IMG/VR virus record: IMGVR_UViG_3300005655_000001
From: a virus
Length of the DNA stretch: 48,430 nt
Reading direction: 5' to 3' (one strand)
Position 1 is the stretch's first letter, and each line of letters begins with the position of its first letter. This document shows positions 6,994 to 28,514 of the stretch, piece by piece. The translations under genes were made by a program, and so were the position numbers. Under the pieces are notes generated by a model, which did not search any database, had not been told where the DNA came from, and worked only from the letters and a program-made list of their open reading frames with translations.

Positions 6994-8247
6994 ATGAAAA
7001 CGCACCCTGTCATCGTCAGCCGCAAGGTTGAGGATTTAATACCCTACGCGCGCAACAGCCGCACGCACAGCGATGCGCAGGTAGCGCAGATCGCGGCCAG
7101 CGTGCGCGAGTTCGGCTGGACGAACCCCGTGCTGGTGGACGGCGAGAACGGAATTATTGCGGGCCATGGCCGCATCCTTGCCGCGCGCAAGCTGGGTATG
7201 GACGAAGTGCCGTGCATTGAGCTGGCTGGGCTGACCGACACGCAGCGGCGCGCTTACATCATTGCGGATAACAAGCTGGCGCTGAATGCGGGATGGGACG
7301 ATGAGCTGCTGGCGATTGAGTTTGCCGAGCTGGCTGATGCTGGTTTCGACAACCTGCTGACCGGTTTCACGCAAGACGAGATTGACGCGCTGACGCCCGA
7401 GCAAATTCCCGAAGGCTTGACGGACGAGGACGCTGTGCCCGAGTTGCAGGCCGAGCCGGTGAGCAAGCTGGGCGACGTTTGGCTGCTTGGTAGGCATCGG
7501 GTGATGTGCGGGGATTCGACCAGCATTGATGCGTTCGGCGCGCTCATGGGCGGACAGTCGGCAGACATGGTTTTCACAGACCCTCCTTATGGCATGAGCT
7601 ACGAGGGCGGTCGTGGAAAGAAGAATTTCGGGATGATTAAGGGAGACGACGCACAAGGCGACAGCCTGATTGCGCTAGTTCAGGAGGCATTGGCTACAGC
7701 CAAGTCCCGAAGCAAAGATGGATCTGCCTTCTATGTGTGTTTCCCGTGGCGGACTTATGCGGAATTCGAGGGCGCACTTAAATCCTGCGGGGTTGAGGTG
7801 AGTGCCTGCATCGTGTGGGACAAGAAGAGCATTGGCCTTGGGCATCAGCACTACCGGCCACAGCATGAGTTCATTTTCTACAGCAAGGGCGGCAACTTCC
7901 ATGGCGACCGCAGCGAATCGGACGTCTGGTACATGGGGCGCGGCAACACAGGCGCGTATGTGCACCCGACGCAAAAGCCGGTCGAACTGGTCGAGAGAGC
8001 CGTTGGCAACAGCAGCAAGGCCGGCGATATCGTCGTGGATTGCTTCGGCGGATCAGGCTCGACGCTCATTGCCTGCGAGAAAACCGGCCGCCACGCCCGC
8101 CTGATGGAGCTTGACCCAAAGTATGTGGACGTGATCGTTCGCCGCTGGTGCGAATTCACTGGCAAGCAGGCCACACACGAAGCCACGGGCGCGACGTTTG
8201 CCGAGGTCGAGGCCGATAGCGCGCTGGCGATTCCCGAGGACGTATGA
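6994..8247 (+). CDS. ParB-like nuclease domain fused to an N6A/N4C DNA methyltransferase
   Basis: 417 aa. The N-terminal ParB-N-like region reads 'IPYARNSRTHSDAQVAQIAASVREFGWTNPVLV...GHGR'. The catalytic motif is 'TDPPYG' and the SAM motif is 'VVDCFGGSGST'. Confidence 0.85.
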   Translation: MKTHPVIVSRKVEDLIPYARNSRTHSDAQVAQIAASVREFGWTNPVLVDGENGIIAGHGRILAARKLGMDEVPCIELAGLTDTQRRAYIIADNKLALNAGWDDELLAIEFAELADAGFDNLLTGFTQDEIDALTPEQIPEGLTDEDAVPELQAEPVSKLGDVWLLGRHRVMCGDSTSIDAFGALMGGQSADMVFTDPPYGMSYEGGRGKKNFGMIKGDDAQGDSLIALVQEALATAKSRSKDGSAFYVCFPWRTYAEFEGALKSCGVEVSACIVWDKKSIGLGHQHYRPQHEFIFYSKGGNFHGDRSESDVWYMGRGNTGAYVHPTQKPVELVERAVGNSSKAGDIVVDCFGGSGSTLIACEKTGRHARLMELDPKYVDVIVRRWCEFTGKQATHEATGATFAEVEADSALAIPEDV

Positions 8248-8726
8248 CAGTCGGACGTAAGCCTACGCCGACAGCGCTCAAACTTGTCACTGGCAACAGA
8301 GGCAAGCGCGCCGTCAACAAGGCCGAGGCCGTGGTCGCCCTGGCCGAGCCGACACCGCCCGCGTTCCTGTGCGACGACGCCAAGGTCGAATGGGGCCGCG
8401 TGTGCAGCGCCCTGTACGCCGCTGGCCTGATGACGGAGCTAGACCGCGCCGCGCTGGCCGCCTACGCCGCCGCCTATGGGCGCTGGGCGCAAGCAGAGCG
8501 GGCGCTGAATCGGATGGCCGCCAAGGATGAATTAAACGCGGCGCTGATGATTAAGACCGTCAGCGGCAACGCCATACAAAACCCGCTCGTCGGGATCGCA
8601 AACAAGGCCAAGGCCGACATGGTGCGCTATGCCGCCGAGTTCGGCATGACCCCTTCGGCGCGCTCCCGCGTCACTGCGACCCCTGATGACAAGAAGCAAG
8701 AAGACAAAGCCGCCCGCTATTTCTGA
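8244..8726 (+). CDS. Terminase small subunit (P27 family-like)
   Basis: 160 aa with 'GRKPTPTALKLVTGNRGKR', '...QNPLVGIANKA...' and 'FGMTPSARSRV'. It is immediately upstream of TerL. Confidence 0.8.
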   Translation: MTVGRKPTPTALKLVTGNRGKRAVNKAEAVVALAEPTPPAFLCDDAKVEWGRVCSALYAAGLMTELDRAALAAYAAAYGRWAQAERALNRMAAKDELNAALMIKTVSGNAIQNPLVGIANKAKADMVRYAAEFGMTPSARSRVTATPDDKKQEDKAARYF

Positions 8727-10401
8727 CGCGGCTACGCAGTACGCGCTGGAAGTCGTGGCGGGCGAGCGGATTGCTGGGCCTCATGTGCGCGGCCAGTGCG
8801 CGCGGCACCTTCGGGATATGGCCGAGGGGCACAAGCGCGGGATGGTGTGGAATGTAGAGGCGGCGGAAAAGGCGCAAGGTTTTTTCGAGGACGTGCTGAA
8901 ACTCAACGGCGGCGACTTCGAGGGCAAGCCGTTTGCCTTGCTGCCCTGGCAGCGGTTTGTTATCGGTTCGCTTTTCGGGTGGACGGGGCCGGACGGGCAC
9001 CGCCGGTTCCGCAACGCTTACATCGAAACCGCGAAGGGTTCCGGCAAATCCCCCCTGGCCGCTGGCGTGGGCATGTTGGGGCTGGTGGCTGACAACGAGC
9101 CACGCGCGGAAATCTACAGCGCCGCCACGAAAAAGGATCAAGCCATGATCCTGTTCCGTGACGCCGTTGCGATGGTGGATCAATCGCCTGAGCTATCCAA
9201 GCGCCTGCAAAAGAGCGGCACGGGTGAGCGGTGCTGGAATCTTGCTTACATGGCGCAGGGCGCGTTCTTCAGGCCAATCAGTAGCGACGATGGGCAAAGC
9301 GGCCCACGGCCCCACATCGGCCTGATTGACGAGCTGCACGAGCACAAGACGAACACTGTGGTCGAAATGATGCGGGCCGGTACGAAGTCGCGCAGGCAGG
9401 CCATGATTTTCATGATTACGAATGCGGGCCACAACCGAATGGGGCCGTGCTGGGGGTATCACGAGTACGGCGCGAAGGTGGCAGCGGGTGAGGTGGAAGA
9501 CGATGCGTTTTTCCCTTTTGTCTGCGGGCTAGACGAAAGCGATGACCCGTTTGCCGACGAAACGTGCTGGCCGAAAGCGAACCCGTCACTGCAAGACGCC
9601 GATCTGCCGGGGATGAAATACATCCGGGAGCAGGTGGTTGAAGCGAAGGGCATGCCGTCCAAGGAGGCCATTGTCCGGCGCTTGAATTTCTGCCAGTGGA
9701 CGGACGCCGAGAGCCCATGGATCAGCGGCGAAGTGTGGCGCGGCGCGCAGCGTGACTTCGACTGGCAAGACTTGCGCGGGCGCCGTGCGGTTGCGGGGCT
9801 GGACCTATCCAGCACCACCGACCTGACAGGCATGGTTTTCCTTGTCGAACCTATCGAGGCTGGAGAACCGTGGCTGCTGGTGCCGTTCGCCTGGCTGCCC
9901 GATGTGGAACTGCAGCGCAAGGCCGACACCGACCGCGTGCCTTACCTGCAGTGGCGCGCCGAGGGCTACCTGGACACGACGCCTGGCCGCGCGATCAGCA
10001 AGCGCGTGATCCTGCAAAAGCTGTCGGCCATGTGCGACTTCTTCGAGATCGTGGCGTGTGGTTATGACCGCTGGCGCATCGAGGATCTGATGGCCATGGC
10101 GGCGGATGACGGCATCTCGCTGCCGGAAATGAGGCCGGTCGGACAGGGATACAAGGACTTCAGCCCGGCGCTAGAGACGTTCGAGCGAATGCTGCTGAAC
10201 GGCGAGATTGCGCACTCGGGCCACAAGGTGCTCGACTGGTGCATGAGCAATTCGGTGATCGAGCAGGATGGCGCGGAAAACCGCAAGCTGTCCAAGGAAA
10301 AAGCGACGGGCCGGATTGACTTGGCTGTCGCTGCAGTTATGGCCGCTGGCCTGATCAACACAACCCTCTCTACAGAGAAGTCCTTCTGGGAAACCGCATG
10401 A
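8686..10401 (+). CDS. Terminase large subunit
   Basis: 571 aa with Walker-A-like 'ETAKGSGKS', a nuclease half and the typical 'LLPWQRFVIGSLFGW'. Confidence 0.9.
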   Translation: MTRSKKTKPPAISDAATQYALEVVAGERIAGPHVRGQCARHLRDMAEGHKRGMVWNVEAAEKAQGFFEDVLKLNGGDFEGKPFALLPWQRFVIGSLFGWTGPDGHRRFRNAYIETAKGSGKSPLAAGVGMLGLVADNEPRAEIYSAATKKDQAMILFRDAVAMVDQSPELSKRLQKSGTGERCWNLAYMAQGAFFRPISSDDGQSGPRPHIGLIDELHEHKTNTVVEMMRAGTKSRRQAMIFMITNAGHNRMGPCWGYHEYGAKVAAGEVEDDAFFPFVCGLDESDDPFADETCWPKANPSLQDADLPGMKYIREQVVEAKGMPSKEAIVRRLNFCQWTDAESPWISGEVWRGAQRDFDWQDLRGRRAVAGLDLSSTTDLTGMVFLVEPIEAGEPWLLVPFAWLPDVELQRKADTDRVPYLQWRAEGYLDTTPGRAISKRVILQKLSAMCDFFEIVACGYDRWRIEDLMAMAADDGISLPEMRPVGQGYKDFSPALETFERMLLNGEIAHSGHKVLDWCMSNSVIEQDGAENRKLSKEKATGRIDLAVAAVMAAGLINTTLSTEKSFWETA

Positions 10402-12044
10402 AACTATGGCCTTTCAGCCGAAAGTCGAACGAGGACGGCTCGGTTCGTCACTCGCTCGATTTGTTCCGGCTGTTGGCCGGGTGGATGGGGACGAAAAGCG
10501 GCGCGTCGGTGTCGCACAAGTCCGCCCTAGAGGTGCCCGCTGTGCTGTCGTGCGTGCGCGTCATTTCCGAAGGCGTGGCGCAGGTGCCGTTTAAGGTTTA
10601 CCGGCAGGTGGGCGACAAGATCATGCCCGCCGCAGATCACCCGCTTTATCGCGTGCTGCACCGCAAGCCGAATGGATGGATGACCAGCTTCGAGCTGCGC
10701 GAAACCATGACCATTCATTGCGTGATGACCGGCGATGCTTATGCCTTCATCAACCGCGTGCGCGGTGAAGTCCGCGAGCTGATCCCATTCCCGCCTGGTG
10801 CTGTGTCCTGCAAGCAAAAGGACGACTACAGCCTGGAATACCAGATCACCGCCCCCAGCGGCAAGACTATGACAGTCCCGCAAGAGGCTGTCTGGCACTG
10901 GCGCGGCCCCAGCTGGGACGCCGTGAGCGGCTTGGATGTGGTCAAGATGGCCCGCGAAGCCATCGGGCTTGCCATGTCTGCCGAAGAGTCGCAGGCCCGA
11001 ATGCAAAAGAACGGTGCTGCGATTTCCGGCACCTACTCGGTCGAGGGGACGCTGAACGCGGAGCAATACAAGGCCATGCGCGCCTGGCTGGAGAAGGAAT
11101 TCGACGGCGCAGCGAACATGGGAAAAACCAAGCTGCTGGACAGAAACGCGAAGTTCCACCCGCAGAGCATGACCGGCATTGACGCGCAACTTCTGGAGAC
11201 GCGAAAGCACCAGATCGAGGAAATCTGCCGCGCCTTTCGCGTCATGCCGATCATGGCAGGGTACAGCGACAAGGCCGCAACCTACGCCAGCGCAGAGCAG
11301 ATGTTTCTCGCGCATGTGGTGCACACCCTCAGCCCCTGGTATGAGCGCATCGAGCAGTCTGCCGAGTTCCACCTTCTGACTGATGCCGAGGTGGAGGCAG
11401 GCTACTTCGTGAAATTCAACGCCGCCGGGCTCATGCGCGGCTCGCACAAGGACCGCAGCGAGTATTTCGCCAAGGCTCTCGGCTCTGGCGGATCGCCAGC
11501 GTGGATGACACAAGACGAAGTGCGCGCCCTGGAAGAACTGAACCCCATGGGCGGCGACGCAGCGCTGTTACCCCTTGGAAGCACGGCCGCGCCTGAGCCG
11601 GTAGACACATCCGCTCAGGATGCGCAAAACGCAAAGCAAGAGGCCCAGGTAGAAAGGGCAATTCAAGACATTTCAGAGGTGAAAACCCTGGTAAATATGT
11701 CCCTTTTGGCCCCAAAACAGCCTGTTTTACCCCCAAATACAGAGGTAAAAACAGGCGATACGCACATCCATCTGCCTGAAAACTTGGTCAAGATTTACAA
11801 CGAAGCGGCCAAACAAGAGCCATCACAAGTGACCGTCAACCTGCCAGAAGTGCAGCCCCCGGTCATAAACGTGGCCCCGGCAGAGGTGAAGGTTGATATT
11901 GCAGCGCCAAACGTGAGTTTTGAGGCTGTTATGCCTACCCCGAACATCATTGTTAGCCTACCGACCCGCAAGACAGACACGACAGTCACCCGCGACCGCG
12001 ACGGGAACATCCTTACCGCGACACAAATCGAACAGGACGCCTAA
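10398..12044 (+). CDS. Portal protein (HK97 family) with a C-terminal extension of about 150 aa at lower GC
   Basis: 548 aa. Position and portal-like core support the call. The tail (about 11580-12040) is rich in P/V/N and has visibly lower GC. Confidence 0.85.
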   Translation: MKLWPFSRKSNEDGSVRHSLDLFRLLAGWMGTKSGASVSHKSALEVPAVLSCVRVISEGVAQVPFKVYRQVGDKIMPAADHPLYRVLHRKPNGWMTSFELRETMTIHCVMTGDAYAFINRVRGEVRELIPFPPGAVSCKQKDDYSLEYQITAPSGKTMTVPQEAVWHWRGPSWDAVSGLDVVKMAREAIGLAMSAEESQARMQKNGAAISGTYSVEGTLNAEQYKAMRAWLEKEFDGAANMGKTKLLDRNAKFHPQSMTGIDAQLLETRKHQIEEICRAFRVMPIMAGYSDKAATYASAEQMFLAHVVHTLSPWYERIEQSAEFHLLTDAEVEAGYFVKFNAAGLMRGSHKDRSEYFAKALGSGGSPAWMTQDEVRALEELNPMGGDAALLPLGSTAAPEPVDTSAQDAQNAKQEAQVERAIQDISEVKTLVNMSLLAPKQPVLPPNTEVKTGDTHIHLPENLVKIYNEAAKQEPSQVTVNLPEVQPPVINVAPAEVKVDIAAPNVSFEAVMPTPNIIVSLPTRKTDTTVTRDRDGNILTATQIEQDA

Positions 12045-12448
12045 TGTCTCTATCCAACATCACCGAAGCCGCAGCACTTGACGTGTTCCTGCGCGGCATC
12101 GACCCTGCATACCGTGCGGGCGCTACCCAGTACCTCGCGCTGTTCACGGCTGACCCAGGCGAGCCCGGAAGCCTGGCAGCCGAGGCCAGCTATACCGGGT
12201 ATGCCCGCGTGGCGCTGACCAAGGCGACCGCCTGGACGGGAACATCGAGCCCGTTCACTAATGCCGCCCTGATTCAGTTCGGCGCGTGTACGGCGGGCAC
12301 CAACGCCTTGACGCACTTCGCTGTCGTGGACACCGCTTCTGGCGCTGTGGCCATGATGATTTCCGGGGCCTTGTCTGCGACGCTGAATGTGAGTTCTGGC
12401 ATCCAGCCGCAGTTTGCCCCTGGCGCTTTGAGTATCTCTGCTGAATGA
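12044..12448 (+). CDS. Unassigned virion-module protein (small family often seen next to tail fibre genes)
   Basis: 134 aa. The ATG overlaps the portal TAA. The pattern 'LDVFLRG...YLALFTADPG...YTGYARVAL...FGAC...THFAVVD...GALSISAE' recalls, from memory, a widespread phage family of unknown function. Confidence 0.6.
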   Translation: MSLSNITEAAALDVFLRGIDPAYRAGATQYLALFTADPGEPGSLAAEASYTGYARVALTKATAWTGTSSPFTNAALIQFGACTAGTNALTHFAVVDTASGAVAMMISGALSATLNVSSGIQPQFAPGALSISAE

Positions 12449-13326
12449 CCATGCCCGGCTTTCGCAACCTTCGTGAGCTGTCCGACGCGCAAGACGCGGG
12501 CCGCTACCTGTACGCGAGTTTTCGCAAGCAGGCCACGCAGACCACGGCGGCTGGGGTGTGGTTCGATCTCTCCATGAGCCCTGGCAACCCGGCCCCCAAT
12601 TACTACATTGGCTCGCCTGGCGTGTTCGTGCCCTTGAAGCAGAGCACGGACGGCGGCATTCGCCACGGTGGGAATGTCAACGCGCAAGGCCAAAAGAAGT
12701 TCTTGCGCAAGCTGATGGCGATGACGCCCACGGCGACGGCAACACCATTGAGCTGCAAGCTGCTGGACTACATCGGCTTCTACGGCTTCATTGACGAGAG
12801 CGTGCTGGATGAGCAGTTCATGGACAACACCACCGCGCCGACACGGTATGCCGATGGCGCAGGCGTGCAACTGATGCCCGTGGTTGTTGCCGGGCAGACG
12901 GGCGGGCAGCCGTTCACAGTGAATTACACCAACCAGGACGGTGTGGCAGGGCGCATATCGCGGAGCCATGTCATGTCCACGCAGTTCGTCAACGGCACGA
13001 TTTTGCACAGCATGCAGGCCAACGCCAGCTACCCCAACAACGGGCCATTCCTGAGCCTGCAAGCGGGGGATAGCGGGGTTCGCTCGGTGGAGTCCGTGAC
13101 AATCGGAGGTGCGGGTGATGTGGGCTTGTTCGCTCTGGTGCTGGTCAAGCCGCTGGCGACGTTCGCCCTGTTCGGCATCGACGCACCGACCGAAGTGGAC
13201 TACTTCACTGACATGGCCTTGATGCCCGAGATCAAAGACGACGCCTACCTCAACCTGATCGCCTTGCCGAACGGGACGCTATCGGGCGCGCCGGTCCACG
13301 GCGTCATCGAAACAACCTGGAACTGA
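12445..13326 (+). CDS. Unassigned protein, paralogue 1 of a tandem pair
   Basis: 293 aa. It shares ordered motifs with 13328..14221: HGGNV, LLDY/LLGFY, TRYADGAGVQ/PRYTDGAGVQ, GDSGVRSV/GDAGIRSV and LVKPL/LCKPL. Confidence 0.7.
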   Translation: MTMPGFRNLRELSDAQDAGRYLYASFRKQATQTTAAGVWFDLSMSPGNPAPNYYIGSPGVFVPLKQSTDGGIRHGGNVNAQGQKKFLRKLMAMTPTATATPLSCKLLDYIGFYGFIDESVLDEQFMDNTTAPTRYADGAGVQLMPVVVAGQTGGQPFTVNYTNQDGVAGRISRSHVMSTQFVNGTILHSMQANASYPNNGPFLSLQAGDSGVRSVESVTIGGAGDVGLFALVLVKPLATFALFGIDAPTEVDYFTDMALMPEIKDDAYLNLIALPNGTLSGAPVHGVIETTWN

Positions 13327-13327
13327 C

Positions 13328-14221
13328 ATGGCTGGCTTTACCTCGCAAGACGACATCATCAACAGCCTGACCGTCTCAGGCCGTGGCTACCGCGCCGACT
13401 GGCAAAAATCCACGTTCACCCCCACAGCCCACACAGCAGGTATGTGGTACAGCCTGTTTCGCGGCGGCGGCAACCCCGGTGCTGACACCATCCTGGGTAC
13501 GGGCACCAACCTGGCATTTCAGGCCCTGACAGATGCCACCACCAACGCCACGGGCATCCCGCACGGCGGCAATGTGGGCGGCTTTAAGGTGCTGCTGAAC
13601 GCTGCCGCGCAGACCGCAGCCGCGACCACTGCGCCCTGTGTGCTGATGCTGGTGGATTTGCTGGGCTTCTACCCCATCACCACCGTCACCGCCACGGGCG
13701 ACCAGGCGCTTAACAACACCGTCACCCTGCCGCGCTACACCGACGGCGCGGGGGTGCAGGCATTCTTGACGCCTTCAACTGTCATGGGCGCGGGCACGCC
13801 AAACATTCGCCTCACCTACACCGACAGCGGCGGAACTGCGGGCAATCTGACGCCAGCAACCCTACCCATTGGCAACACCGCCGCACCTGTGACGCAGATC
13901 GTTTACAGCGGCACGGGCGCTGGCAAGTTCGGCCCATTCGTTCCGCTGGCTACGGGCGACGCGGGCATACGCTCTGTGCAGCAGTTCAGCCTGTCGGCCA
14001 GCTATGTGTCAGGCGTGCTGAACCTGGTGCTGTGCAAGCCATTGATGACGCTGCCTATCACTACGCTGGGCGTGACTGCTGAACGCGACCTGGTGAACCA
14101 GTTTGCCAGCATGCCCAAGGTGTACGACGGCGCGTGCCTGGCCTGGCTGATGCTGGCTGGGGCCGCGACTCCGGTGGCATCACCTATCAGTGGCCACCTC
14201 GAATTTGGATGGGGGGCATAA
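13328..14221 (+). CDS. Unassigned protein, paralogue 2 of a tandem pair
   Basis: 297 aa. See the shared motifs listed for 12445..13326. Confidence 0.7.
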   Translation: MAGFTSQDDIINSLTVSGRGYRADWQKSTFTPTAHTAGMWYSLFRGGGNPGADTILGTGTNLAFQALTDATTNATGIPHGGNVGGFKVLLNAAAQTAAATTAPCVLMLVDLLGFYPITTVTATGDQALNNTVTLPRYTDGAGVQAFLTPSTVMGAGTPNIRLTYTDSGGTAGNLTPATLPIGNTAAPVTQIVYSGTGAGKFGPFVPLATGDAGIRSVQQFSLSASYVSGVLNLVLCKPLMTLPITTLGVTAERDLVNQFASMPKVYDGACLAWLMLAGAATPVASPISGHLEFGWGA

Positions 14222-14905
14222 ATGGCCCTGATTGGTAACGGCTCCGTCCTGCACAAGTCGCCCGGTCGTTTTCTGAACGGCTACGGGACGACGGGCGGCG
14301 GCATTGCGTCCATGCGCTGTGGTCTTAACAAGCACGGGATGCGGCGCAACGCTTACCAATCGTTCCACGCCAAGAGCGCCACACCTGATGGGCACTTGAG
14401 CCCCAGCGCTTGGGTGCTGCCCAAGACATCAGGCGGCATGAGCAGCCGCAACGTGACCGCGCTGAGCCTGTCGCCGACTGCAAGCATGGTGGGAGGTGTT
14501 ACCACGACAGGCACCAGCACCCTGACGTTCACGGTGTCGGATGCGGCGGGGCAGCTTATTTCGTCCGGCTCGGGCGTTGCATCGCTGGCTTTCACGTTCG
14601 CCAATGCGCTGCTGACGGCTTCGCTCAATGGCATCGGCGAAGCATCGTTCACGCTGAGCACGAACACGCCACCGCTGGGCGCAGAGGCCAGCGGCACGGG
14701 TGCGGCCAGCTTCACGATTACGGGGGCGCTGGTGCCGTATGCGATTGGCTCAATGTCTGGATCGACTGTGGACACGGCCACCTTGACCACTGCCGCCATC
14801 TTGGCCGCGATGAACGCCAGCCCACCGGGGGTGAACATCAAGTTGGTCAATGACGTAGCGGTAACGGGAGACGGCCAACCAGGCACGGAATGGGGGCCGC
14901 AGTGA
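14222..14905 (+). CDS. Unassigned Ala/Gly/Ser/Thr-rich protein with about four internal repeats of roughly 21 aa
   Basis: 227 aa. The repeated segments are GTSTLTFTVSDAAGQL, GSGVASLAFTFANALL, GIGEASFTLSTNTPPL and GTGAASFTITGALVPY. Confidence 0.6.
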   Translation: MALIGNGSVLHKSPGRFLNGYGTTGGGIASMRCGLNKHGMRRNAYQSFHAKSATPDGHLSPSAWVLPKTSGGMSSRNVTALSLSPTASMVGGVTTTGTSTLTFTVSDAAGQLISSGSGVASLAFTFANALLTASLNGIGEASFTLSTNTPPLGAEASGTGAASFTITGALVPYAIGSMSGSTVDTATLTTAAILAAMNASPPGVNIKLVNDVAVTGDGQPGTEWGPQ

Positions 14906-15141
14906 CATCAAGTTTCAACGGCTGGGGCAACAGTTGGGCGCAAACATGGGATCGAATCAGCGACCCCAATGCAATGTATGGCAGCGCCAGCATGACTTTT
15001 ATAGCGCTTGGCAGCTTGACCTCGACCAGCGCCGCAGGAAAACCAGTCGGTAAGCCGCGCTTTTACGCACAGCCTATCCCAATGGCAGACAACAGCAGGC
15101 AGCTACGCGAAGACGACAGCCTGCTACTACTTCTACTGTAA
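14890..15141 (+). CDS. Unassigned small protein (Trp-rich N-terminus, acidic/Leu-rich C-terminus)
   Basis: 83 aa with 'FNGWGNSWAQTWD' and C-terminal 'REDDSLLLLLL'. The start is uncertain. Confidence 0.45.
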   Translation: MGAAVTSSFNGWGNSWAQTWDRISDPNAMYGSASMTFIALGSLTSTSAAGKPVGKPRFYAQPIPMADNSRQLREDDSLLLLLL

Positions 15142-15149
15142 GGAGCCAT

Positions 15150-15791
15150 ATGGCAACCATTGACTTTTCCTTTGAGCTGAAAGCCTCAAAAGACGATGGC
15201 ACTTTCGAGGGTTACGGCTCGGTTTTCAACATCAAGGACGGCGGCAACGACATCATCGTTCCCGGTGCATTCACAGAAACCTTGAGCAGCCAAAAAGCCA
15301 TCGGACGCATGCCCGCGATGCTTTGGCAGCACCGCCGTGATGAGCCGATTGGTGTCTATACAGACATGAAAGAGGACAACGTAGGGCTAAAATTCTCCGG
15401 CAAGCTGGCGCTTAAAACAGCACGCGGGGCAGAGGCTTACGAGCTGATGAAGATGGGCGCATTGTCTGGCATGAGCATCGGATACCGCGCCAAGGAAGAC
15501 AGCTACGACCGCATCACCGGCATTCGCACGTTGAAGCGGCTCGACCTGCTGGAACTGAGCCTCGTTACCTTCCCGATGAATGACGCAAGCCGCATCAGTT
15601 CAGTCAAAAGCTCGATTGAAGAGCTTGAAACCATTCGTGATGCCGAGAGATTCCTGAGAGATAACGGAATGTCTCGCACCGAAGCCGTGGCCTTTATCAG
15701 CCGCGTGAAAAGTCTTGGGCCGCGTGATGCGGGTGAAGACGATATGCAAAGCCTGATCACTGCCATCAAGCAGCGAAAAGCCCCCGTATAG
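15150..15791 (+). CDS. Prohead maturation protease (HK97 family, S78)
   Basis: 213 aa with AAGGAG RBS, 'FEGYGSVFN..D..GDII.PGAF', 'WQH' and 'SIGY'. Confidence 0.9.
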   Translation: MATIDFSFELKASKDDGTFEGYGSVFNIKDGGNDIIVPGAFTETLSSQKAIGRMPAMLWQHRRDEPIGVYTDMKEDNVGLKFSGKLALKTARGAEAYELMKMGALSGMSIGYRAKEDSYDRITGIRTLKRLDLLELSLVTFPMNDASRISSVKSSIEELETIRDAERFLRDNGMSRTEAVAFISRVKSLGPRDAGEDDMQSLITAIKQRKAPV

Positions 15792-15812
15792 GCGCCCGCC
15801 ACCAAGAACCAG

Positions 15813-15835
15813 ACCGCCCTAGAGGCGGTTTTTTT
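15813..15835 (+). terminator. Rho-independent terminator between protease and capsid genes
   Basis: ACCGCC-CTAGA-GGCGGT followed by T7. Confidence 0.7.
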
Positions 15836-15856
15836 ACGCCCAAAGAAAGGCAAACC

Positions 15857-17170
15857 ATGTCCGACATCCTCGAAATCAAGACTCTTATTGAAGCCCAAGG
15901 CAAAGCCTGGGAAGAGCACAAGAAAACCAACGACGAACTGATCAAAGCCAAGGCCGAAGGCAAGGCCGTGGCAGACCTCGAAGTCAAGCTGTCAAAAGTC
16001 AGTGACGAAATGGACAAGTTGGCCGACCTGAAGGCCGATTTTGACAAGTTCATCCTTGAATCGCAGCGCCCCGGCGCGGGTGCCAAGGGCGATGGCAGCG
16101 TGGAGGCCGAATGCAAGAGCTGGAACGCCATGCTCCGCGCCGACTTCCAATCCAAGGGCCGCAGCATCCCCGCTGAAGTGTCCGTTGACACCTACACGGA
16201 ATACAAGAGCGCCTTTTACTCGCTGGTGCGCCATGGCGACATCGAGCGCCTGAACCCAGCCGAGCGCAAGGCTCTGTCTGCCGGTTCTGATCCTGATGGC
16301 GGCTACCTGCTGCCTACGCCCACCGTTGGCCGCATGATCAAGAAGGTGTATGAGCAATCCACCATGCGCCAACTGGCCAACGTGCTGACCATCAGCACCG
16401 ACGCCCTGGAAGGCATCGTTGACAACGACGAAGCCGACGCCGGGTGGGTGTCCGAAATGGGAGCACGCAACGACACCGATACGCCGCAGCTTGGCAAGTA
16501 TCGGATCGAAGCGCACGAAATGTACGCACAGCCCAAGGTGACTCAGAAGCTGATCGACGACGCCGCCACCGATGTGGAAGCCTGGCTTGCTGAAAAGGTG
16601 GGCGGCAAGTTCGCTCGCGTTGAAGGCGCTGCTTTCTGGACTGGCGACGGCGTGGGCAAGCCCCGTGGCCTGGCCGCATACGCCACGGCGGCGACCGGCG
16701 ACGGCAGCCGCGCATGGGGCACCTTTGAGCACGTCATTACCGGCGCCAATGGTGCATTCCACACGACCAAGGCTGATCCGCTGCAAGACCTGCTGGGCGC
16801 GTTCAAAGACCAGTACCTGCAAAACGCAGCGTTCGTCATGCGCCGCGAAGTGCGCACCCTGATTCGCAAGATGAAGGAAGCCACCAGCGACCGCTATCTG
16901 TGGGAGCCATCCCTGCAAGCCGGTCAGCCCGACCGCCTGCTGGGCTACCCGGTGCGTATTGACCAGTACATCCCAACGATTGCTACTGGATCGCTGTCGC
17001 TGGCGTTTGGTGACTTCAAAGAGGCTTACACCATCGTGGATCGCATCGGCGTTCGCACCCTGCGCGACCCCTACACGGCCAAGCCTTATATCCGCTTCTA
17101 CAGCACGAAGCGCACAGGCGGGGGTGCTATCAACACCGAAGCCGTGAAGTTCCTCAAGTTCTCTGCCTAA
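15857..17170 (+). CDS. Major capsid protein (HK97 fold) with N-terminal delta domain
   Basis: 437 aa with a coiled-coil N-terminus of about 100 aa followed by a capsid core. Position after the protease supports the call. Confidence 0.9.
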   Translation: MSDILEIKTLIEAQGKAWEEHKKTNDELIKAKAEGKAVADLEVKLSKVSDEMDKLADLKADFDKFILESQRPGAGAKGDGSVEAECKSWNAMLRADFQSKGRSIPAEVSVDTYTEYKSAFYSLVRHGDIERLNPAERKALSAGSDPDGGYLLPTPTVGRMIKKVYEQSTMRQLANVLTISTDALEGIVDNDEADAGWVSEMGARNDTDTPQLGKYRIEAHEMYAQPKVTQKLIDDAATDVEAWLAEKVGGKFARVEGAAFWTGDGVGKPRGLAAYATAATGDGSRAWGTFEHVITGANGAFHTTKADPLQDLLGAFKDQYLQNAAFVMRREVRTLIRKMKEATSDRYLWEPSLQAGQPDRLLGYPVRIDQYIPTIATGSLSLAFGDFKEAYTIVDRIGVRTLRDPYTAKPYIRFYSTKRTGGGAINTEAVKFLKFSA

Positions 17171-17225: not shown

Positions 17226-17615
17226 ATGTCCGAACTCAAAAACAACATTGCGGCGGTTCTCGCCCTCTCGCCTGTGGTGCACTCTGCCACCAAGGCCGAC
17301 GCCCCAATCATCGACTTGCAAGGCGCGGGCTCTGCCACGGTCGTCATCAACACCGGCGCCATCGTCTCTTCTGGCGACTACACCGTAAGCCTGCGCCACG
17401 GCGACGCATCCGACCTGACCGGCGACGCTGCCGCAAGCGGTGATGAGCTGTTGGGCACGTTCCCCGCAACGCTCGCTGCTGATTCCGCCTACTCGGTGGG
17501 CTATCGCGGCGGCAAACGCTATGTGCGCGTTGTCATCACCAAAAACAGCGGCACCTCGATTGCTGCTGGTGCTGTGATCGTCAAGGGCCACCTGTCCCTG
17601 ACTGGCACGGTTTGA
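17226..17615 (+). CDS. Hypothetical head-associated protein (possible decoration/accessory)
   Basis: 129 aa, directly after the MCP and flanked by GC-rich stem-loops (17178-17199, 17622-17645). Confidence 0.5.
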   Translation: MSELKNNIAAVLALSPVVHSATKADAPIIDLQGAGSATVVINTGAIVSSGDYTVSLRHGDASDLTGDAAASGDELLGTFPATLAADSAYSVGYRGGKRYVRVVITKNSGTSIAAGAVIVKGHLSLTGTV

Positions 17616-21162: not shown

Positions 21163-24100
21163 ATGGCTGAAAGAACCAATCCGCACGCGAATCTGATCAT
21201 CGGCGCGCAGGATGAAGCCTCGCCCGTTTTTGAGCAGGTAGGCGCCAGTGCCAAGCGCATGGCGGACGCCGTAAAGGGCGCCAACGAACAGGCGGGAAAA
21301 TCATCCAAGCAGTTCAACGAAGAACTCAAAGGCTCAAAAAATGAAATGCAGGGGCTGTCCGACCCCGCAGTCCCTGCTGCGCAAACGTTCGACAAGGCCA
21401 CCAGCTCCATGATCCGGCAGGTTCAGCGCCTGAATGCTGAACTCGAAGCTGGCGGAGCGCGCAATGCCGCCTATTTTGAAAAAATGGCATCCGTCAAGGG
21501 GGCCGACCTGTCTGCCATGGCTCCCTACCTGGCAGACCTCAAGAAAGCCGAAGCCGCCCAGCGCGTTGCCACGACCGGCCTGGATCACATGGGCATGTCT
21601 GCAAAGCAAACCGCGGCAGCGTTGCGCCAAGTTCCAATGCAGTTCACAGACATTGTTGTCAGCCTGCAAGGCGGGCAATCAGCAATGCAAGTGTTCTTGC
21701 AGCAGGGCGGGCAGCTTAAAGATATGTTTGGCGGCGCAGGTAACGCGGCCCGCGCACTGGGTGGCTATGTGCTGGGGCTGGTTAACCCGTTCACCATTGC
21801 AGCCGCCGCAGTGGCAGGTATTGCCGTGGCCTACAACCAGGGCGCAAAAGAGGCAGACGGCTACCGCATGGCGCTGGTGATGACGGGAAACGCCGCAGGC
21901 ACCACCGCCGCGCAAATGCAGCAAATGGCAGGGCGCATCAGCTCTGTCGTGGGCACGCAGGGCGCAGCCGCCGAAGCCCTGGCGCAAATGGCATCCAGCG
22001 GGCGCGTGGCATCGCAGAGCCTGGAATACTTCAGCGAAGTCGCCATCAAGTTCGAGCGCACCACCGGCACGGCCATTTCCGAAACCGTCAAGCGCTTTGC
22101 AGAACTCGGCGCATCGCCGGTTGACGCCTCGCGCAAGCTGAACGAGGAAACCAACTACCTCACAGCGTCAATCTACGAACAGATCAAGGCCCTGAAAGAC
22201 CAAGGGCGCGAAGCAGACGCCGCAGCCCTGGCACAAAACACCTACGCGGACGCACTCAACAACCGCAGCGCACAGATCACCCAGAACCTCGGAGCCATCG
22301 AGGGCGCGTGGAAAGCCATCAAGGACGCAGCCAAGAGCGGATGGGATGCCATGCTGAACGTCGGGCGCGCCGACTCGCTGGGCACGCAAATTGACAACAT
22401 GCGCGCAAAGATCGCGCAGGCCAAAGGGCAGGACAAGAACCGCCCATTCAGCATGCCATGGGATACGTCTCTGGCAGATTTGGAGAAGCAGCTTTCCTTC
22501 CTGACTGAGCAGGAGCGCGTGATTCGTCGCGGAGCAGAAGCACAAGCCCAGCGCACGCAGGCAGAGAAAGAGGCCATTGCGGCTACGGATGCATTGCAAA
22601 AGACGCAGGCCAGCGGGTTGACGAACCAGCAGAAGATGAACAAGGCGCTGGAAGAATACGCCCGCCACATCGAGAAGCTGAAGGCCACAAACCCGGCTTC
22701 TGTTCTGCTGTCGCCGGACGCCATCGCACGCGGCGAAAAGGCCATTCGGGATCAGTTCTCGGACAAGGGCAAAGGATCGGCTGGCATCAAGGCTGTGAAC
22801 AAAGACCTTGCGGATCAGCAGCGCATCTTTGCAGAGCTTGCTGGGGTGTCCAGCACCTACTACAAAGAGTTAGCAGCAGCACAAGAGCAGCGCGCAAAGG
22901 GCAACGTCAGCGAAGCGCAGTACGTCGCCTACGTCAACGATCTTGTCCAAAAGCAGCCATTCGCCGTGGCGCTGGCAAAGGAAGAAGCCAAAGCGCAGCA
23001 AACCCTCTCCAAAGCCAACCTAGACGCCGCTGCATCCCGCGAAAAGTACATCACATCGCTGTCCACCGGCCTCGACAAAATCCAAGCCGATATTGCCGCG
23101 CAGATCGAATCCACCGAGCGCATGGGCCTGAGCAAAGAGGCCATTGCTGAATTGGACGCTGCCAAGCTGGAAATGCTGGCGACGGATCTGGAATTGCAGG
23201 CCGTCAAAGCGATGGACCGCAACCTCGACCAGCAGACCTACGACGCCTTGAAGCAACAGGCGCAGGCGTACCGCGAGCTGGGCATTGCCAAGAAGGGCGG
23301 CGCAGCGAAAGAGGCAGCGCTTGACCTGGAAAAGGCCAATGCCGAAGCAGCAAAGAAGGCGCAGGAGGACTGGGAGCGGGCATCGGAGCAGATCAACAGC
23401 ACCCTCACAGACGCCCTGATGCGCGGCTTCGAGTCCGGGAAAGACTTCGCCAAGAACCTGCGCGACACGGTCGTTAACATGTTCAAAACGATGGTGCTGC
23501 GGCCTGTTATCAGCGCAGTTCTAAGCCCCGTCAGTATGGCCTTGAGCGGGCTTACCGGTGCCGGAAGTGCTGCAGCGAGTCAGGCTGGAGGCTCTGCTTT
23601 GGGAAGCGCCGGAGGGTCTCTGATGGGGTCCGCTTTGGGCGGCATCGGAGCATTCGGCACAGGCGCAAGCTACGGCGCCGCCAGCCTGTTTGCGAATGGC
23701 CTGACGGGCACGCTGGCCGCAGGCGGGCAGATGATCGGCGCCGGGTCGGTCATGTCGGGCCTGGGAACGATCTCCGGGGCACTCGGCCCCATTGCCATCG
23801 GCATTGCGCTGATTGCAAGCCTCATCAAGAAATCCACCCCCCACATGGGCGCCGCATCTACCTACAGCGAAGCGGGCGGGCTGGTGTCAAATGCGGACAT
23901 TTACCGCGATTCGGGCCTGGCCGACGTGCGCACCTACAACGCGGGCGTGGAACAGGTGACGGGCAACGTCGCCAAAGCCATCGGCGACACGCTGAACGCC
24001 ACTGCCAAAAGCTTCGGCAAGACGGCTGGATACGAAATCACCACCGCCTTTGCTGACGACACCAGCAAAGACGGCGCATGGGGTTCGCTCATCATCAAGC

Positions 24101-27100
24101 AGATGGGCGAAGCGGTGATTGATTGGCGCGGCACCCAGACCAGCAAGTGGGCGCCCAAGGAATTCGCTGACGGCGAACAGGGCGGCAAGGAATACCTGGC
24201 CGCCGTTGCCAAGAGCGCCCGTGATGCGCTCGTTACCGCGATTGGCGATGTTGATTGGGCCACCGGCATGCTGCGGGCCCTGGGCGAAGCCCCCACGCTC
24301 GAAGGCCTGGCCGGGGTGGTCGAGAAGATCAACGCAGCCAAAGCGGCCTTCGTCGGCTTCGGCCAATACATGCCCGTCTTCGCTGCGCAGTCTGACGCTG
24401 CCGTGTCCGCGCTGGTCAAGGCATCGGGCGGTGTGGATGCTCTGGCGGGCAACATGGCCGTGTTCGTGGACGGCTTTTACACCGACGCGGAAAAGCTCGC
24501 AATCAACACCGAAAACGTGCGCACCGCCATCGAGGCGCTGGGCCTTGAAATGCCCACCACCCGCGCCGAATACAAAGCGATGGTGCAGGCCCAGATCGCC
24601 CTGGGCGACGCGGGGGCAACGACCACGGCAGGGCTGCTGGCCGTCTCGGGGGCCTTTGCAGCGGTCGTACCGGCTGTGGACGCCATCAGCGAAGCTATGC
24701 GCCGTCTGCAGTCAGAAACCAGCAGTTTGGAGGTGGACCTACTGCGCGCCCAGGGCGACACCACGGGTGCCGATGCAGCCCAGCGGGCAATCGACACCGA
24801 AGGCCTCACCGCAGCAGAGATTGCGGTGTACGACTACAACCAAGCGTTGCGTGCGCAAATTGAAGCACTGGGCCAGGCCTCGGCCGCATCCGTGGCTGCA
24901 GAGTCTGAGCGGGCCGGCCTGCTCGATCGCTGGGACGCCGCTGTGGACGACTCTGTGCGCCTGCGCGACCGCGAGCGCAACGCCATCGCACAGGCCAACC
25001 TCGCGCTGTGGGACCAGGTGACAGCAATGGAAGCCTTGAAAGAGGCAACCCAAGCCAATGCAGCAGGTAAAGACACGTTTGACAAAACGTACACCACGAC
25101 GCAGGAGCAGCGCGATGCCCTGCAAACGGTCATCAATGACACGTTTTCCATGCTCAAGATCGAGGCCCCAGAGTCCGTCGATTCGTACAAGGCGCTCGAA
25201 TCCTACTTTGGTAATTTGGCAAAACAGGCCAAGTTTGCTTTTGAGGCACTGGGCTCCAGTCGCGGAACCGCCATCAGCCTGATCAACACCGGCAAAGCGG
25301 TGGACGAAAAGGGCGTGCTGCAGGACTACGCCTACTGGGACAAGCGCATCACCGAGATGACCGGCGTTACTGCACGCCCCACATCGGTTGAAGGATTCGA
25401 CGCGCTGGTTACCCAGCTGGGCCAGACCGCGAATGATGCGGCGGGCGACTACACAGCCTTGCTCAAGGCCAGCGAAGCCTATGCCGCGCTTAACAAAATC
25501 GCAGACGGCGTGCCAGAGTCTGTGGGCAATGCTGCTGACGCCATCGGCAACCTGAGCAATGCACTTGCCCAGCAAACAGCCGACATGCTGGACCGCATTT
25601 TTGAGCTCGAAAACGCGGGCAACACCAGCGCGCTGCAGGGTCGCGAACTGGGCAAGCTCGACCCCACGCTGCGCCCGCTGCAAGAACGCATCTGGGCGCT
25701 GGAGCGCGAAGCTGTGGTGATGGGCGAGCAAAAGTCCATCCTCGACCAGATCAACCAGCTCACGATGACCAGCGAGCAGCTGCGCAAGCTGGAGCGCAAC
25801 GCGCTGGACGAAAGCAACCGCGCGCTGTTTGATCGCCTGACGGGCCTGCAAGCCGCCGCAGCAGTGGAGCGGGAGCGCGCAGGCCTGCAAGACGAGCTCA
25901 ACCGCATCGTGATGTCAGAGGACCGGCTGCTGGCCCTGCGCCGCGAGACTTTGAACGAGAGCAACCGGGCACTTTTCGACCAGATCCAGGTGGCGACGAA
26001 AGAAAAAGCCCTCGAAGCAGAACGCGCCGGACTTCAAGACCGCATCAACGGGCTCACGCTGGGCACGGCCGCATTGCGCGACCTCGAAGTGTCGAAACTC
26101 GACGCCAGCAACGGCGCGTTGCTGCGCCGCATCTTTGCCCTCGAAGACGAAAAGCGCGTTGCCGATGAACGCGCCGGGCTGCAAGAACAGATCAACCAGC
26201 TCACGCTCAGCACGGTGGAGTTGCGCGCGCTGGAGATTGCCAAACTCGACGCCAGCAACCGCCCGATGCAGGAACGCATCTGGCTGCTCGAAGAAGAAAA
26301 GCGCGTGGCCGAAGAGCGCAACAACCTGATGACCAGCCTGTACCAGGCCGTGGGCAACACCGGTGCGCTGCGAGCCGATCAGCTTAAGCAACTCGACCCT
26401 GCCAACCGCGCGCTGCAAGAGCAGGTGTGGCAGATCGAGGACGCAAAAACAGCGCTGGAGAAGGCATTGCAGGCAGAGCGCACCAGCGCCCAAGCTGCGC
26501 AGCAGGCCGCACAAGAACGCGTCAGCACGCTGAAGAGCATCTTCGACACGCTCAAGTCTAATGTGGACAGCCTGTACGACTCGGTTGAAGCGACGAAGGC
26601 ATGGGGCGCAGCGCAGGCCAATGCGTTTATCGACAACGCATTGGGCAATGCACGCGCAACAGGCTACATGCCCGAAGCGGATGACCTGGCAGACGCCATC
26701 TCAGGCGCCCGTGGTGGGTTGGACAAAGAGTACGCCACCGAGTTTGAAAAGCAGCGCGACACCTTGGTGCTCGCTGGCAAGCTGGCAGAACTGCAGGGTA
26801 TCAGCGGCGAACAATTGTCGGCTGCCGAGCGGCAACTGAAGGCATCGGAAGCACAGGTAGAAGCCCTTGACGGAATGCAGGCGCAGGGCAAGGCGCTGCT
26901 GGAGAGCCTGAGCGGGAACACGGCTGCAACCCTGAGCATTGCCGACGCCATTGCGAACCTGAGTGCTGCGATCACCGGGGTTGACCCTGGCGCTGCGGGT
27001 GGCGTCCTAGATGGCGCATCGGCTTACACCGGATCGCCCGAAGAAGACGAAGCCCGCGGCGTGTTCGGCGGGGTGCGACCCAGCATCATCAATGCAGCCG

Positions 27101-28511: not shown

Positions 28512-28514
28512 TTT

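Follow-up and report, generated by a model that had tools for sequence, protein, structure and literature searches.

The five genes lying between the portal and prohead protease genes of the window (the whole 48,430-nucleotide stretch of viral DNA analysed), hereafter c1 to c5, represent, on sequence comparison, a single copy of a structural cassette of five genes that is widespread, moves horizontally between phages and prefers the slot directly after the portal gene. Specifically, hundreds of phage contigs from metagenomes contain the cassette with its gene order fixed, the order c1-c2-c3-c4 being kept in about 78 of the 102 loci examined, and no earlier description of it was found as far as our searches reach. 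We propose, with about even confidence, that the cassette builds an accessory "beads-on-a-string" fibre or whisker, neck- or capsid-proximal, on the virion exterior close to the portal vertex.

All five reading frames of the original prediction, of 134, 293, 297, 227 and 83 aa, are present between portal and protease (Table 1). Translation of c2 probably begins at the ATG at 12451 and not at that at 12445, because the c2 homologues are nearly all 291 aa long. The tight coupling of the genes is likewise borne out. The ATG of c1 (12044-46) shares a base with the TAA that ends the portal gene (12042-44), c1 and c2 overlap by 4 nt or are 2 nt apart depending on the start chosen, c2 and c3 are separated by 1 nt, c3 and c4 join without a gap, c4 and c5 overlap by 16 nt, and 8 nt separate c5 from the protease gene. 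A scan of the + strand within the block revealed no credible terminator or promoter, a lone weak terminator-like site at 12862 being within chance expectation. By this layout, c1-c5 are co-transcribed with the late head genes.

Table 1. Features of the interrupted head module, in window coordinates.
Feature	Position	Strand	Description
Portal body, HK97-type	residues 1-393, 10398..11576	+	PF04860, E 3.9e-89; backbone, outside the cassette
Portal C-terminal extension	residues 394-548, 11577..12044	+	last ~125 aa (from ~nt 11664) form a mobile tail co-travelling with the cassette
c1	12044..12448	+	134 aa; Gp80-family subunit by sequence (GP4 fibre I / Bas63 whisker type)
c2	12451..13326	+	291 aa; uncharacterised predicted beta-sandwich protein, paralog of c3; alternative ATG 12445 gives 293 aa
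c3	13328..14221	+	297 aa; second paralog, short form
c4	14222..14905	+	227 aa; modular repeat protein, candidate rope
c5	14890..15141	+	83 aa; small, fast-evolving fifth component
S78 prohead protease	15150..15791	+	PF04586, 1.8e-35; backbone, downstream of the cassette
HK97-type major capsid protein	15857..17170	+	PF05065, 7.2e-75; backbone, downstream of the cassette

The window carries the portal, S78 protease and HK97-fold capsid genes of an HK97-type head module, all co-oriented. In Azospirillum phage Cd, the nearest cultured relative, these genes are contiguous and overlapping, in keeping with the expectation that such genes normally adjoin, whereas the run is split in the window and in its close relative L018; relative to phage Cd, the c1-c5 block is an insertion. 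The extent of the block, 12044-15141, is confirmed, but the inserted segment begins earlier than had been thought, within the 3' end of the portal gene (10398-12044). The window portal is 45% identical to the Cd portal over residues 20-393 and has no similarity to it past residue ~393. Its residues 423-548 match, at 34-36% identity, the C-terminal tails of portals from different Pfam families whose genes immediately precede the cassette (L013 and L079, PF05136; L076, PF06381), and the extension belongs to no Pfam or NCBIfam family. Most portals upstream of cassette copies lack this tail. Taken together, these comparisons indicate that in this lineage the last ~125 aa of the portal co-travel with the cassette and that the portal body is backbone.

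Against L018, a 90-93% identical relative, dN/dS is 0.14-0.32 for c1-c4 (0.14 for c1) and 0.13 for the capsid gene; c1-c4 are therefore real genes. The c5 reading frame is intact in L018 and 99.6% identical. The cassette genes are real and under purifying selection, c3 being the most divergent of them between the window and L018 (82% nucleotide identity; c2, 98%).

The backbones that host the cassette are podovirus-like and siphovirus-like and carry HK97-type, P22-type, capsid_3 or capsid_4 capsids; at least five capsid families and seven portal families are represented. In the loci L003-L011, c1-c3 are 78-90% identical, and the window shares no other detectable protein with those backbones. 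Of 70 non-redundant contexts, 21 have a portal gene (from seven Pfam families) and 4 an SU10-type adaptor gene upstream of the cassette; the commonest downstream neighbours are capsid and protease genes. The usual slot is the one behind the portal gene, irrespective of tail type, and many copies do not lie beside a portal.

Sequence comparison identifies c1 as a clear member of the Gp80 family. Its residues 3-131 align with positions 2-127 of the 128-position Pfam model PF23140 (Gp80; E 1.8e-22, 80.5 bits against a cut-off of 27), and it also matches PHROG 240, annotated "head protein" (5e-16). In line with this, a profile of 10 cassette c1 sequences, with GP4 left out, matches chain a of PDB 8JOU over its full length (positions 2-132; E 5.5e-12); this chain, one of 10 in the entry, is the 140-aa gp80 of Ralstonia podophage GP4, to which c1 is 31% identical pairwise. 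Database searches gave more than 4000 c1 matches, the top 120 clusters all being at least 86% identical. The claim that none of the five proteins resembles a known head protein is thus wrong for c1, and it holds for c2-c5 in that none has a decoration or scaffold match in Pfam or PHROG.

Members of the Gp80 family have been solved in fibre I of GP4 and, as structural homologues of gp80, in the neck whiskers of the Escherichia myophage Bas63/Sf14 (Felixounavirus; PMC12609058). In the collar-whisker assembly of Bas63, the whisker dimers are arranged "like beads on a string", a rope completes their incomplete sandwiches, and the whiskers touch both capsid and tail at the neck, where binding of LPS has been suggested; in GP4 the rope is an independent protein (PMC12609058).

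The architecture of c4 looks rope-like. A conserved N-terminal part of ~90 aa is followed by four strand units of ~21 aa (residues ~95-178, nt ~14504-14755), which account for the repetitive character already ascribed to the protein, and a PYAIGSMSGST junction leads into a C-terminal end that can be swapped. Across the family (369 database matches of 203-342 aa), the unit is ~21-25 aa long and variable in number, and the alignment contains repeat blocks of ~25 aa that are gained or lost and three alternative C-terminal modules. c4 belongs to no Pfam or PHROG family, is modelled alone by AF2 with a pLDDT of only 52.7, and always lies in one operon with c1 in the loci examined. The ~21-aa strand repeats, their variable number, the low stand-alone foldability and the operon shared with c1 suggest that c4 could serve as a strand donor. 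Homology to GP4 gp79, a candidate for the GP4 rope, is not detectable (hhalign probability 0.15); gp79 is not among the PDB sequences. Directly after c4, phmmer finds c5-related reading frames in L055 (4e-8), L065 (9e-8), L013 (5e-6) and L006 (1.6e-4). The c5 protein has SFxGWGxSWxxxW as its N-terminal motif, a single strand unit like those of c4 and a C-terminus that is first basic and then acidic, ending in EDDSLLLLLL. Motifs of this protein recur in the alignment of related reading frames and mark c5 as a genuine, fast-evolving fifth member of the cassette.

Together, c2 and c3 make up over half of the cassette. They are paralogs (32% identity, E 1e-31) with no named relative in any library searched: c2 has no match in Pfam, PHROG, NCBIfam or the PDB sequences, its matches in BFVD are uncharacterised Caudovirales proteins only, and its relatives form 1586 clusters at 50% identity. 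In most IMG/VR loci c3 is 373-390 aa long, with an insertion of about 90 aa that is missing from the window c3. The AF2 model of c2 (pLDDT 96.4, pTM 0.93) is mostly beta-strand, and a beta-sandwich fold is confidently predicted for both proteins. In a Foldseek search, a check suggested with the original prediction, the c2 model gave only weak jelly-roll capsid matches in the PDB (best matches: TM 0.12-0.26, rmsd 12-21 Å), led by the single jelly rolls of birnavirus VP2, tetravirus and picornavirus VP1 (E about 1e-4, TM at most 0.2, rmsd about 20 Å, probability <0.5), and none with TM >0.3. An assignment of c2/c3 as viral single-jelly-roll capsid proteins was rejected, as superposition on an eight-stranded capsid jelly roll at TM above ~0.5 was not reached for the c2 model. 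Its likeness to these RNA-virus capsid proteins is a general beta-sandwich/jelly-roll resemblance on the model and not evidence of homology.

In the fibre that we propose, c1 dimers, each monomer an incomplete beta-sandwich, would be threaded as beads on an extended c4 chain, whose ~21-aa repeats, together with the single similar unit of c5, would donate the missing strands, and the number of c4 repeats would set the fibre length. The jelly-roll-like paralogs c2 and c3 may form a hetero-oligomeric globular part, which could be either a head for binding at the distal end or a foot in contact with the capsid; of the two, c3, given its insertion loop and higher variability, would more likely determine specificity. 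Docking to a particular virion, or a role in assembly, may fall to the variable C-terminal modules of c4, to c5 or to both. Such a fibre could mediate reversible adhesion to cell-surface or environmental glycans, brace the head-tail junction, or both, as proposed for GP4 and Bas63.

The closest known system is GP4 fibre I (PDB 8JOU), in which gp80 dimers on a "rope" are anchored to gp77, an Ig-like fibre-tail adaptor. The cassette shares with it a Gp80-family c1 and an adjacent repeat protein in the style of a strand-donating rope. In L014 the cassette also fills the genomic slot of GP4 fibre I, directly following an SU10-type adaptor, at the place taken by gp81-gp80-gp79-gp78-gp77 in GP4, and in L011 a Gp77-like collar reading frame immediately precedes c1. 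On the other hand, the cassette lacks a Gp77 collar, adds the large paralogs c2 and c3 and the small c5, and usually lies right after the portal gene, in the window on an HK97-type siphovirus backbone. No match to Gp77 (PF23148) was found in c1-c5, nor with the Gp77 profile among all window reading frames at E up to 10; among cassette loci, Gp77-like frames occur only in L011, beside c1, and in L019 and L021, at a separate native locus. Because L019 has the cassette in addition to a native GP4-type locus, the two are distinct systems. In Bas63 the rope is an N-terminal extension of the collar protein carrying only two dimers, and c2/c3-like partners are absent. Accessory appendages of dispensable type, with roles in adsorption or assembly, also occur at the head-tail junction or head as the T4 fibritin (wac) whiskers and phi29 gp8.5. 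These are trimeric coiled-coil or beta-helical, single-gene products, unlike the multi-protein cassette, to which they have no sequence or fold relationship.

Several points count against the fibre. Proteins that are 80-90% identical would have to dock on seven portal and at least five capsid families, and such conservation is unusual for receptor-binding proteins. The co-travelling portal tail is expected inside the capsid, since portal C-termini face the capsid interior. Additionally, the lack of detectable homology between c4 and GP4 gp79 weighs against it, the window has no Gp77-type Ig-like collar, and c2 and c3 have no counterpart in GP4 or Bas63.

The cassette might, with rather low probability, serve mainly to stabilise the capsid and not for adhesion, with a c2-c3 hetero-oligomer decorating or cementing the capsid surface and c1 and c4 running along capsid edges. 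GP4 fibre I is reportedly located on capsid edges around the tail vertex, according to the GP4 structure study, and the "head protein" annotation of PHROG 240, the usual position of the cassette between portal and capsid genes, and the weak resemblance of c2 to viral capsid jelly rolls are consistent with decoration. The up-facing Bas63 whiskers, moreover, touch capsid decoration proteins (PMC12609058). Decoration proteins normally co-evolve with the capsid lattice, yet c1-c3 are 80-90% identical across HK97-type, P22-type, capsid_3 and capsid_4 capsids, and no cassette protein matches a known decoration family in Pfam or PHROG. Decoration overlaps with the proposed fibre rather than opposing it.

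It is unlikely that the products are internal head proteins or ejected cargo, recruited via the portal tail, the c5 C-terminal peptide or both and released on infection. This reading of the original prediction draws positive support only from the adjacency to the portal gene in 21/70 contexts and from the homologous tail found with the cassette across three portal families; the conserved acidic-plus-leucine end of c5 could in addition be a targeting peptide, and c4 is largely unstructured alone in AF2. Gp80-family proteins are, however, external in both solved virions, c2, modelled as a compact and well-folded beta-sandwich of 291 aa, does not resemble typical ejection proteins, and Pfam, PHROG and NCBIfam reveal no enzymatic, membrane-active or DNA-binding domain. 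The many copies away from portals and the absence of the tail from most upstream portals also argue against cargo.

Equally improbable is a late-expressed "moron" whose products would stay out of the particles and, for example, act on the host envelope, exclude superinfecting phages or serve as an assembly/chaperone set. The extreme mobility between unrelated phages and the variable insertion sites would suit it, as would the situation in PA-SR01, the sole cultured phage that has both c1 and c2, where the two genes are surrounded by nuclease and recombination genes a long way from the capsid gene. Nevertheless, the cassette invariably lies in structural operons, co-oriented with them, translationally coupled and without a promoter or terminator of its own, c1 is a member of a family whose place in the virion is structurally verified, no signal peptide or obvious membrane segment is seen by eye, and a conserved five-gene order with a fibrous component of variable repeat number is typical of structural assemblies.

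Relocation of tail-tip or baseplate components of this siphovirus, to which the few and poorly annotated genes after the tape measure (27585-30493) had pointed, is very improbable and essentially refuted by the synteny survey of cassette loci, since the same block recurs in unrelated backbones, usually after the portal, including podovirus-like ones with complete tail genes of their own; searches of Pfam, PHROGs and NCBIfam gave c1-c5 no match to a Dit, Tal or baseplate family, and a tail tip is present where expected, since families associated with tails (phrog_2837 "tail protein", DUF4376, CBM_5_12) are found among the genes after the tape measure. What survives of the suggested tail-tip, side-fibre or head-fibre components is, in spirit, the fibre, through the Gp80 membership of c1 (PMC12609058).

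Returning to the proposed fibre, we tentatively suggest, as a possibility less probable than the fibre itself, that the cassette encodes a novel, self-contained plug-in appendage of five proteins, in which Gp80 beads, a repeat rope, a new jelly-roll heterodimer or hetero-oligomer, a small docking/chaperone protein and sometimes a portable portal tail would assemble, after transfer between phages, on unrelated portals, capsids and tails. If so, unrelated phages of one habitat would share an adhesion device, and c2 and c3 would be the founding members of a family of adhesins or decoration proteins new to phages.

The gene content of the window is that of a siphovirus-type genome with connector and lysis genes in addition to the packaging, head and tail genes listed in the table, and its very long tape measure implies an unusually long tail. 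Between the portal and protease genes, five co-oriented ORFs encode proteins of 134, 293 (probably 291), 297, 227 and 83 aa (c1–c5), as the original prediction stated, and the tight junctions that it described hold as well: the portal TAA overlaps the c1 ATG, and the remaining gaps are 0–2 nt or overlapping. No credible internal promoter or terminator was found within the c1–c5 block. Azospirillum phage Cd, the closest relative in culture that was found, has its portal, protease and capsid genes side by side, and the block is therefore an insertion. Moreover, the match between the window and Cd portals ends at residue ~393 of 548, which indicates that the foreign segment starts within the 3′ end of the portal gene. 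Elsewhere in the window, the ORF directly 3′ of the capsid gene, a frequent site of head decoration proteins, is kept in L018, a phage closely related to that of the window. The genes at 27585-30493 that follow the tape measure gave no match to a canonical Dit or Tal family. A ‘carbohydrate-binding family V/XII protein’ is also encoded in the head region of the cassette-bearing podovirus MW202692.

Coordinates of features in the window and in fetched metagenomic loci
Sequence	Coordinates	Feature	Details
Window	6994-8247	ParB-N-like + N6/N4 DNA methylase fusion	417 aa; just upstream of packaging genes
Window	8686-10401	Large terminase	
Window	10398-12044	HK97-type portal	PF04860
Window	11664-12041	Portal C-terminal tail	~125 aa; residues ~423-548
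Window	12044-15141 (+)	c1–c5	
Window	15150-15791	S78 prohead protease	
Window	15857-17170	HK97-fold capsid protein	
Window	17226-17615	ORF directly 3′ of capsid gene	129 aa; sole match phrog_5707 (unknown function)
Window		Tail tube	PF08813
Window	21163-27588	Tape measure	2141 aa; PF06791 at residues 141-342
Window	27585-30493	Genes after tape measure	308 aa, CBM_5_12 carbohydrate-binding module + phrog_6278; 482 aa, weak match to phrog_6278; 176 aa, DUF4376 / ‘tail protein’
L011	9274-9555	Gp77-like ORF (Ig-like fibre-tail adaptor)	Immediately 5′ of c1; mini-profile E 8e-10
L018	1445-1570	ORF between c1 and c2	41-42 aa
L019	18395-19847	Native fibre-I-type locus	After adaptor
L019	10001-13682	Cassette	After portal
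L076	4221-6668	Portal (PF06381) with inorganic pyrophosphatase domain + DUF5661	PF18823, E 8.9e-39

Domain and profile searches identify c1 as a clear Gp80-family protein. It scores 80.5 bits against Pfam PF23140 (cut-off 27) and matches PHROG 240 ‘head protein’, and a c1 profile built without GP4 recovers PDB 8JOU (gp80 of the Ralstonia podophage GP4, 10 chains) over the full length with an E-value of 5.5e-12. PDB sequence searches with c1, c2, c3, c4 and a 109-sequence c2/c3 profile returned nothing except this match, and c2, c3, c4 and c5 have no Pfam, PHROG, NCBIfam or PDB-sequence match. c2 is a paralog of c3 (32% identity, E 1e-31). The model of c2 shows a mostly β-strand domain predicted with very high confidence (pLDDT 96.4, pTM 0.93), for which Foldseek against PDB gave only a weak resemblance to jelly-roll capsid proteins of viruses (TM at most 0.2) and Foldseek against BFVD gave uncharacterised Caudovirales proteins only, so that neither search yielded a named structural relative. 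GP4 gp79, encoded downstream of gp80, was considered as a relative of c2/c3 and rejected, as BLASTP shows no relation. In most loci c3 has 373–390 aa with an insertion of ~90 aa, and the c3 of the window represents the short form.

As judged from its neighbourhoods across metagenomic contigs, the block is a mobile cassette with a fixed gene order. All cassette components fall in large, unnamed metagenomic families: c1 has more than 4000 database matches, the top 120 clusters of which are all at least 86% identical; c2/c3 have 3154 matches in a word-indexed search and, in an exhaustive one, 1586 clusters at 50% identity; and c4 has 369 matches. Additionally, one peptide pattern retrieved at least 560 contigs in a scan of IMG/VR. 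When 16 window proteins were compared by tblastn with the first 13 fetched loci encoding close relatives, only c1–c4 proved common to the window and these loci, with no match for the terminase, portal body, protease, capsid or tail proteins. Specifically, in L003–L011 c1–c3 are 78–90% and c4 is 39–60% identical to the window proteins. The backbones of the fetched loci vary greatly and comprise SU10-like podoviruses whose small terminase is of the Sf6 type (L003–5), phages with P22 portal and P22 coat (L015–17), a lambda-portal siphovirus in which protease and capsid are fused (L013), a GP4-like podovirus (L019–22), contigs with the cassette after large tail-like genes (L006–7) or after an SU10-type adaptor (L014), and L018, a phage genuinely closely related to that of the window, with 90–93% nucleotide identity from portal to adaptor. 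A search for the host by way of genome contigs yielded nothing but MAGs, namely Haliea, a Pseudomonadota bin and a Saccharibacteria contig that is probably mis-binned. We found no description of the cassette in the literature searched. Pseudanabaena phage PA-SR01 is the sole isolate that carries both c1 and c2, and the literature on it contains no virion proteomics of the homologues.

HMMs for c1, c2/c3 and c4 recovered the order c1-c2-c3-c4 in ~78 of 102 loci, the others being mostly cut by contig ends. In a Pfam census of 70 non-redundant genes immediately 5′ of c1, a portal gene lies directly upstream in 21, from seven Pfam families (P22, SU10, lambda, HK97, portal_3, SPP1 and T7-type), and an SU10-type adaptor in four. 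The commonest downstream neighbours are capsid proteins (five families) and S78/S49 proteases, and some copies stand before packaging genes or adjoin lysis genes. This census indicates that the cassette usually sits wedged between portal and head genes and that the window is not peculiar in this. A search for a conserved ‘c0’ gene preceding c1 was negative, the small upstream ORFs forming unrelated clusters.

Comparison of the window with L018 across 12451-17170 reveals patchy nucleotide identity (protease 100%, c5 99.6%, c2 98%, c4 96%, c1 94%, capsid 89% and c3 82%), which indicates ongoing or recent gene-sized recombination in the head region. The dN/dS ratio between the two is 0.14–0.32 for c1–c4 and 0.13 for the capsid gene. 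An ORF of 41–42 aa separates c1 from c2 in many cassettes, including those of L018, L006, L014 and L015; relative to L018, a 124-nt indel located precisely at the c1/c2 junction accounts for its absence from the window.

c4 consists of four parts, namely a conserved N-terminal region of ~90 aa, the repeats, a PYAIGSMSGST junction and a C-terminal module of which there are at least three interchangeable types. The repeats are Gly-x-Gly/strand units of ~21–25 aa in variable number, four of them in the window (residues ~95-178); this variation was read from the family alignment and not from a regex count, which is too strict. AF2 predicts c4 alone poorly (pLDDT 52.7). No homology between the c4 family and GP4 gp79 was detected by hhalign, and gp79 is absent from PDB. 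c5 is conserved in L018, and in several loci phmmer detects a relative of it immediately 3′ of c4. Its family combines an N-terminal SFxGWGxSWGxSWG motif, a DPNAMxGSASF strand similar to the c4 unit, and a basic, then acidic end (...EDDxLLLLL). A frameshift or split gene, by which c5 would supply the C-terminus that longer homologues of c4 possess, was rejected: the similarity is to the repeat unit only, and c4 and c5 are separate, coupled genes in other loci.

In two solved systems, GP4 and the Escherichia myophage Bas63, Gp80-type subunits are incomplete β-sandwiches that form dimers arranged as beads on a string, with an extended ‘rope’ running through the dimer grooves and completing the sandwiches (PMC12609058). 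The GP4 rope is described as a separate protein locked into a gp77 Ig-like collar and carrying five dimers (PMC12609058, PMC11445570). In Bas63, the rope belongs to the collar protein, as its N-terminal arm, and carries two dimers; the whiskers contact capsid and tail, with a suggested role in LPS binding (PMC12609058). The cassette probably follows the same construction principle as GP4 fibre I and the Bas63 whiskers. Its c1 dimers would be threaded on the c4 repeats, and perhaps also on the single c5 unit, in which case the c4 repeat number may set the length of the fibre. In GP4 fibre I, the five dimers reportedly lie along the capsid edges. c2 and c3 may form a globular part of the assembly, with c3, given its insertion loop and higher variability, as the likelier specificity element, and the variable c4 ends and/or c5 could provide docking or assembly help. 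Beyond the family membership of c1 and the genetics of the cassette, we infer this mechanism throughout.

A neck or capsid-proximal location for such a fibre is supported by the portal- or adaptor-adjacent gene position, by the slot in L014, which is equivalent to that in GP4, and by the Gp77-like ORF just before c1 in L011, a Haliea MAG contig whose cassette is alone, among the copies seen, in having an attached collar gene. On the other hand, only c1 is common to the cassette and to GP4 fibre I and the Bas63 whiskers, both of which lack a counterpart of the two large paralogs and the small protein. No Gp77 collar is encoded in the window, and in this the cassette departs from the GP4 system. 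Furthermore, both systems coexist in L019, where the native locus of this GP4-like podovirus encodes Gp80, a 250-aa repetitive protein and then Gp77. The L019 cassette is itself mosaic, as its c1 is 88% identical to that of the window, but its c2/c3-like genes only 32–43%.

The C-terminal tail of the window portal is homologous, at 34–36% identity, to tails of two other Pfam portal families, the lambda-type portals of L013 and L079 and the portal_3-type portal of L076, all of which directly precede the cassette. The tail was rejected as a universal companion of the cassette; it occurs in some contexts only, with HK97-, lambda- and portal_3-type portals. Its sequence includes short xVxVxxP repeats and a final TVTRDRDGNILTATQIEQDA, similar to how C-terminal modules of one c4 class end, and this reflects a recombination junction or else a link in function. 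In L076, the pyrophosphatase and DUF5661 domains sit between the portal body and the shared tail, an unusual enzyme-portal fusion.

A capsid-decoration role overlaps with the fibre reading, yet it is hard to reconcile with cassette proteins that are 80–90% identical across unrelated capsid families. What suggests internal cargo is confined to the adjacency of the cassette to the portal, the co-travelling portal tail and the C-terminal motif of c5, and such a role is at odds with Gp80 proteins being external. Translational coupling within structural operons and the family membership of c1 make a non-virion moron unlikely. Relocated tail-tip components, as originally proposed, are effectively excluded, since the synteny survey contradicts this reading and no tail-tip family match was obtained.

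Taken together, the cassette is a mobile and widespread element that includes three or four uncharacterised families of proteins, and is of relevance to both phage structural biology and annotation. If the fibre reading is true, very common phage genes labelled ‘hypothetical’ would together become readable as one structural module, and the bead-on-a-string principle, discovered recently and known from a few cultured phages (GP4, Bas63), would reach a large share of environmental phage diversity, include HK97-type siphoviruses and gain three or four new protein families. For annotation, the cassette accounts for recurrent ‘split’ head modules, which might otherwise be taken for a misassembly or for a moron. 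Its occurrence with seven portal and several capsid families raises the question of how an accessory appendage docks on unrelated virions, and makes it a natural portable module for phage engineering.
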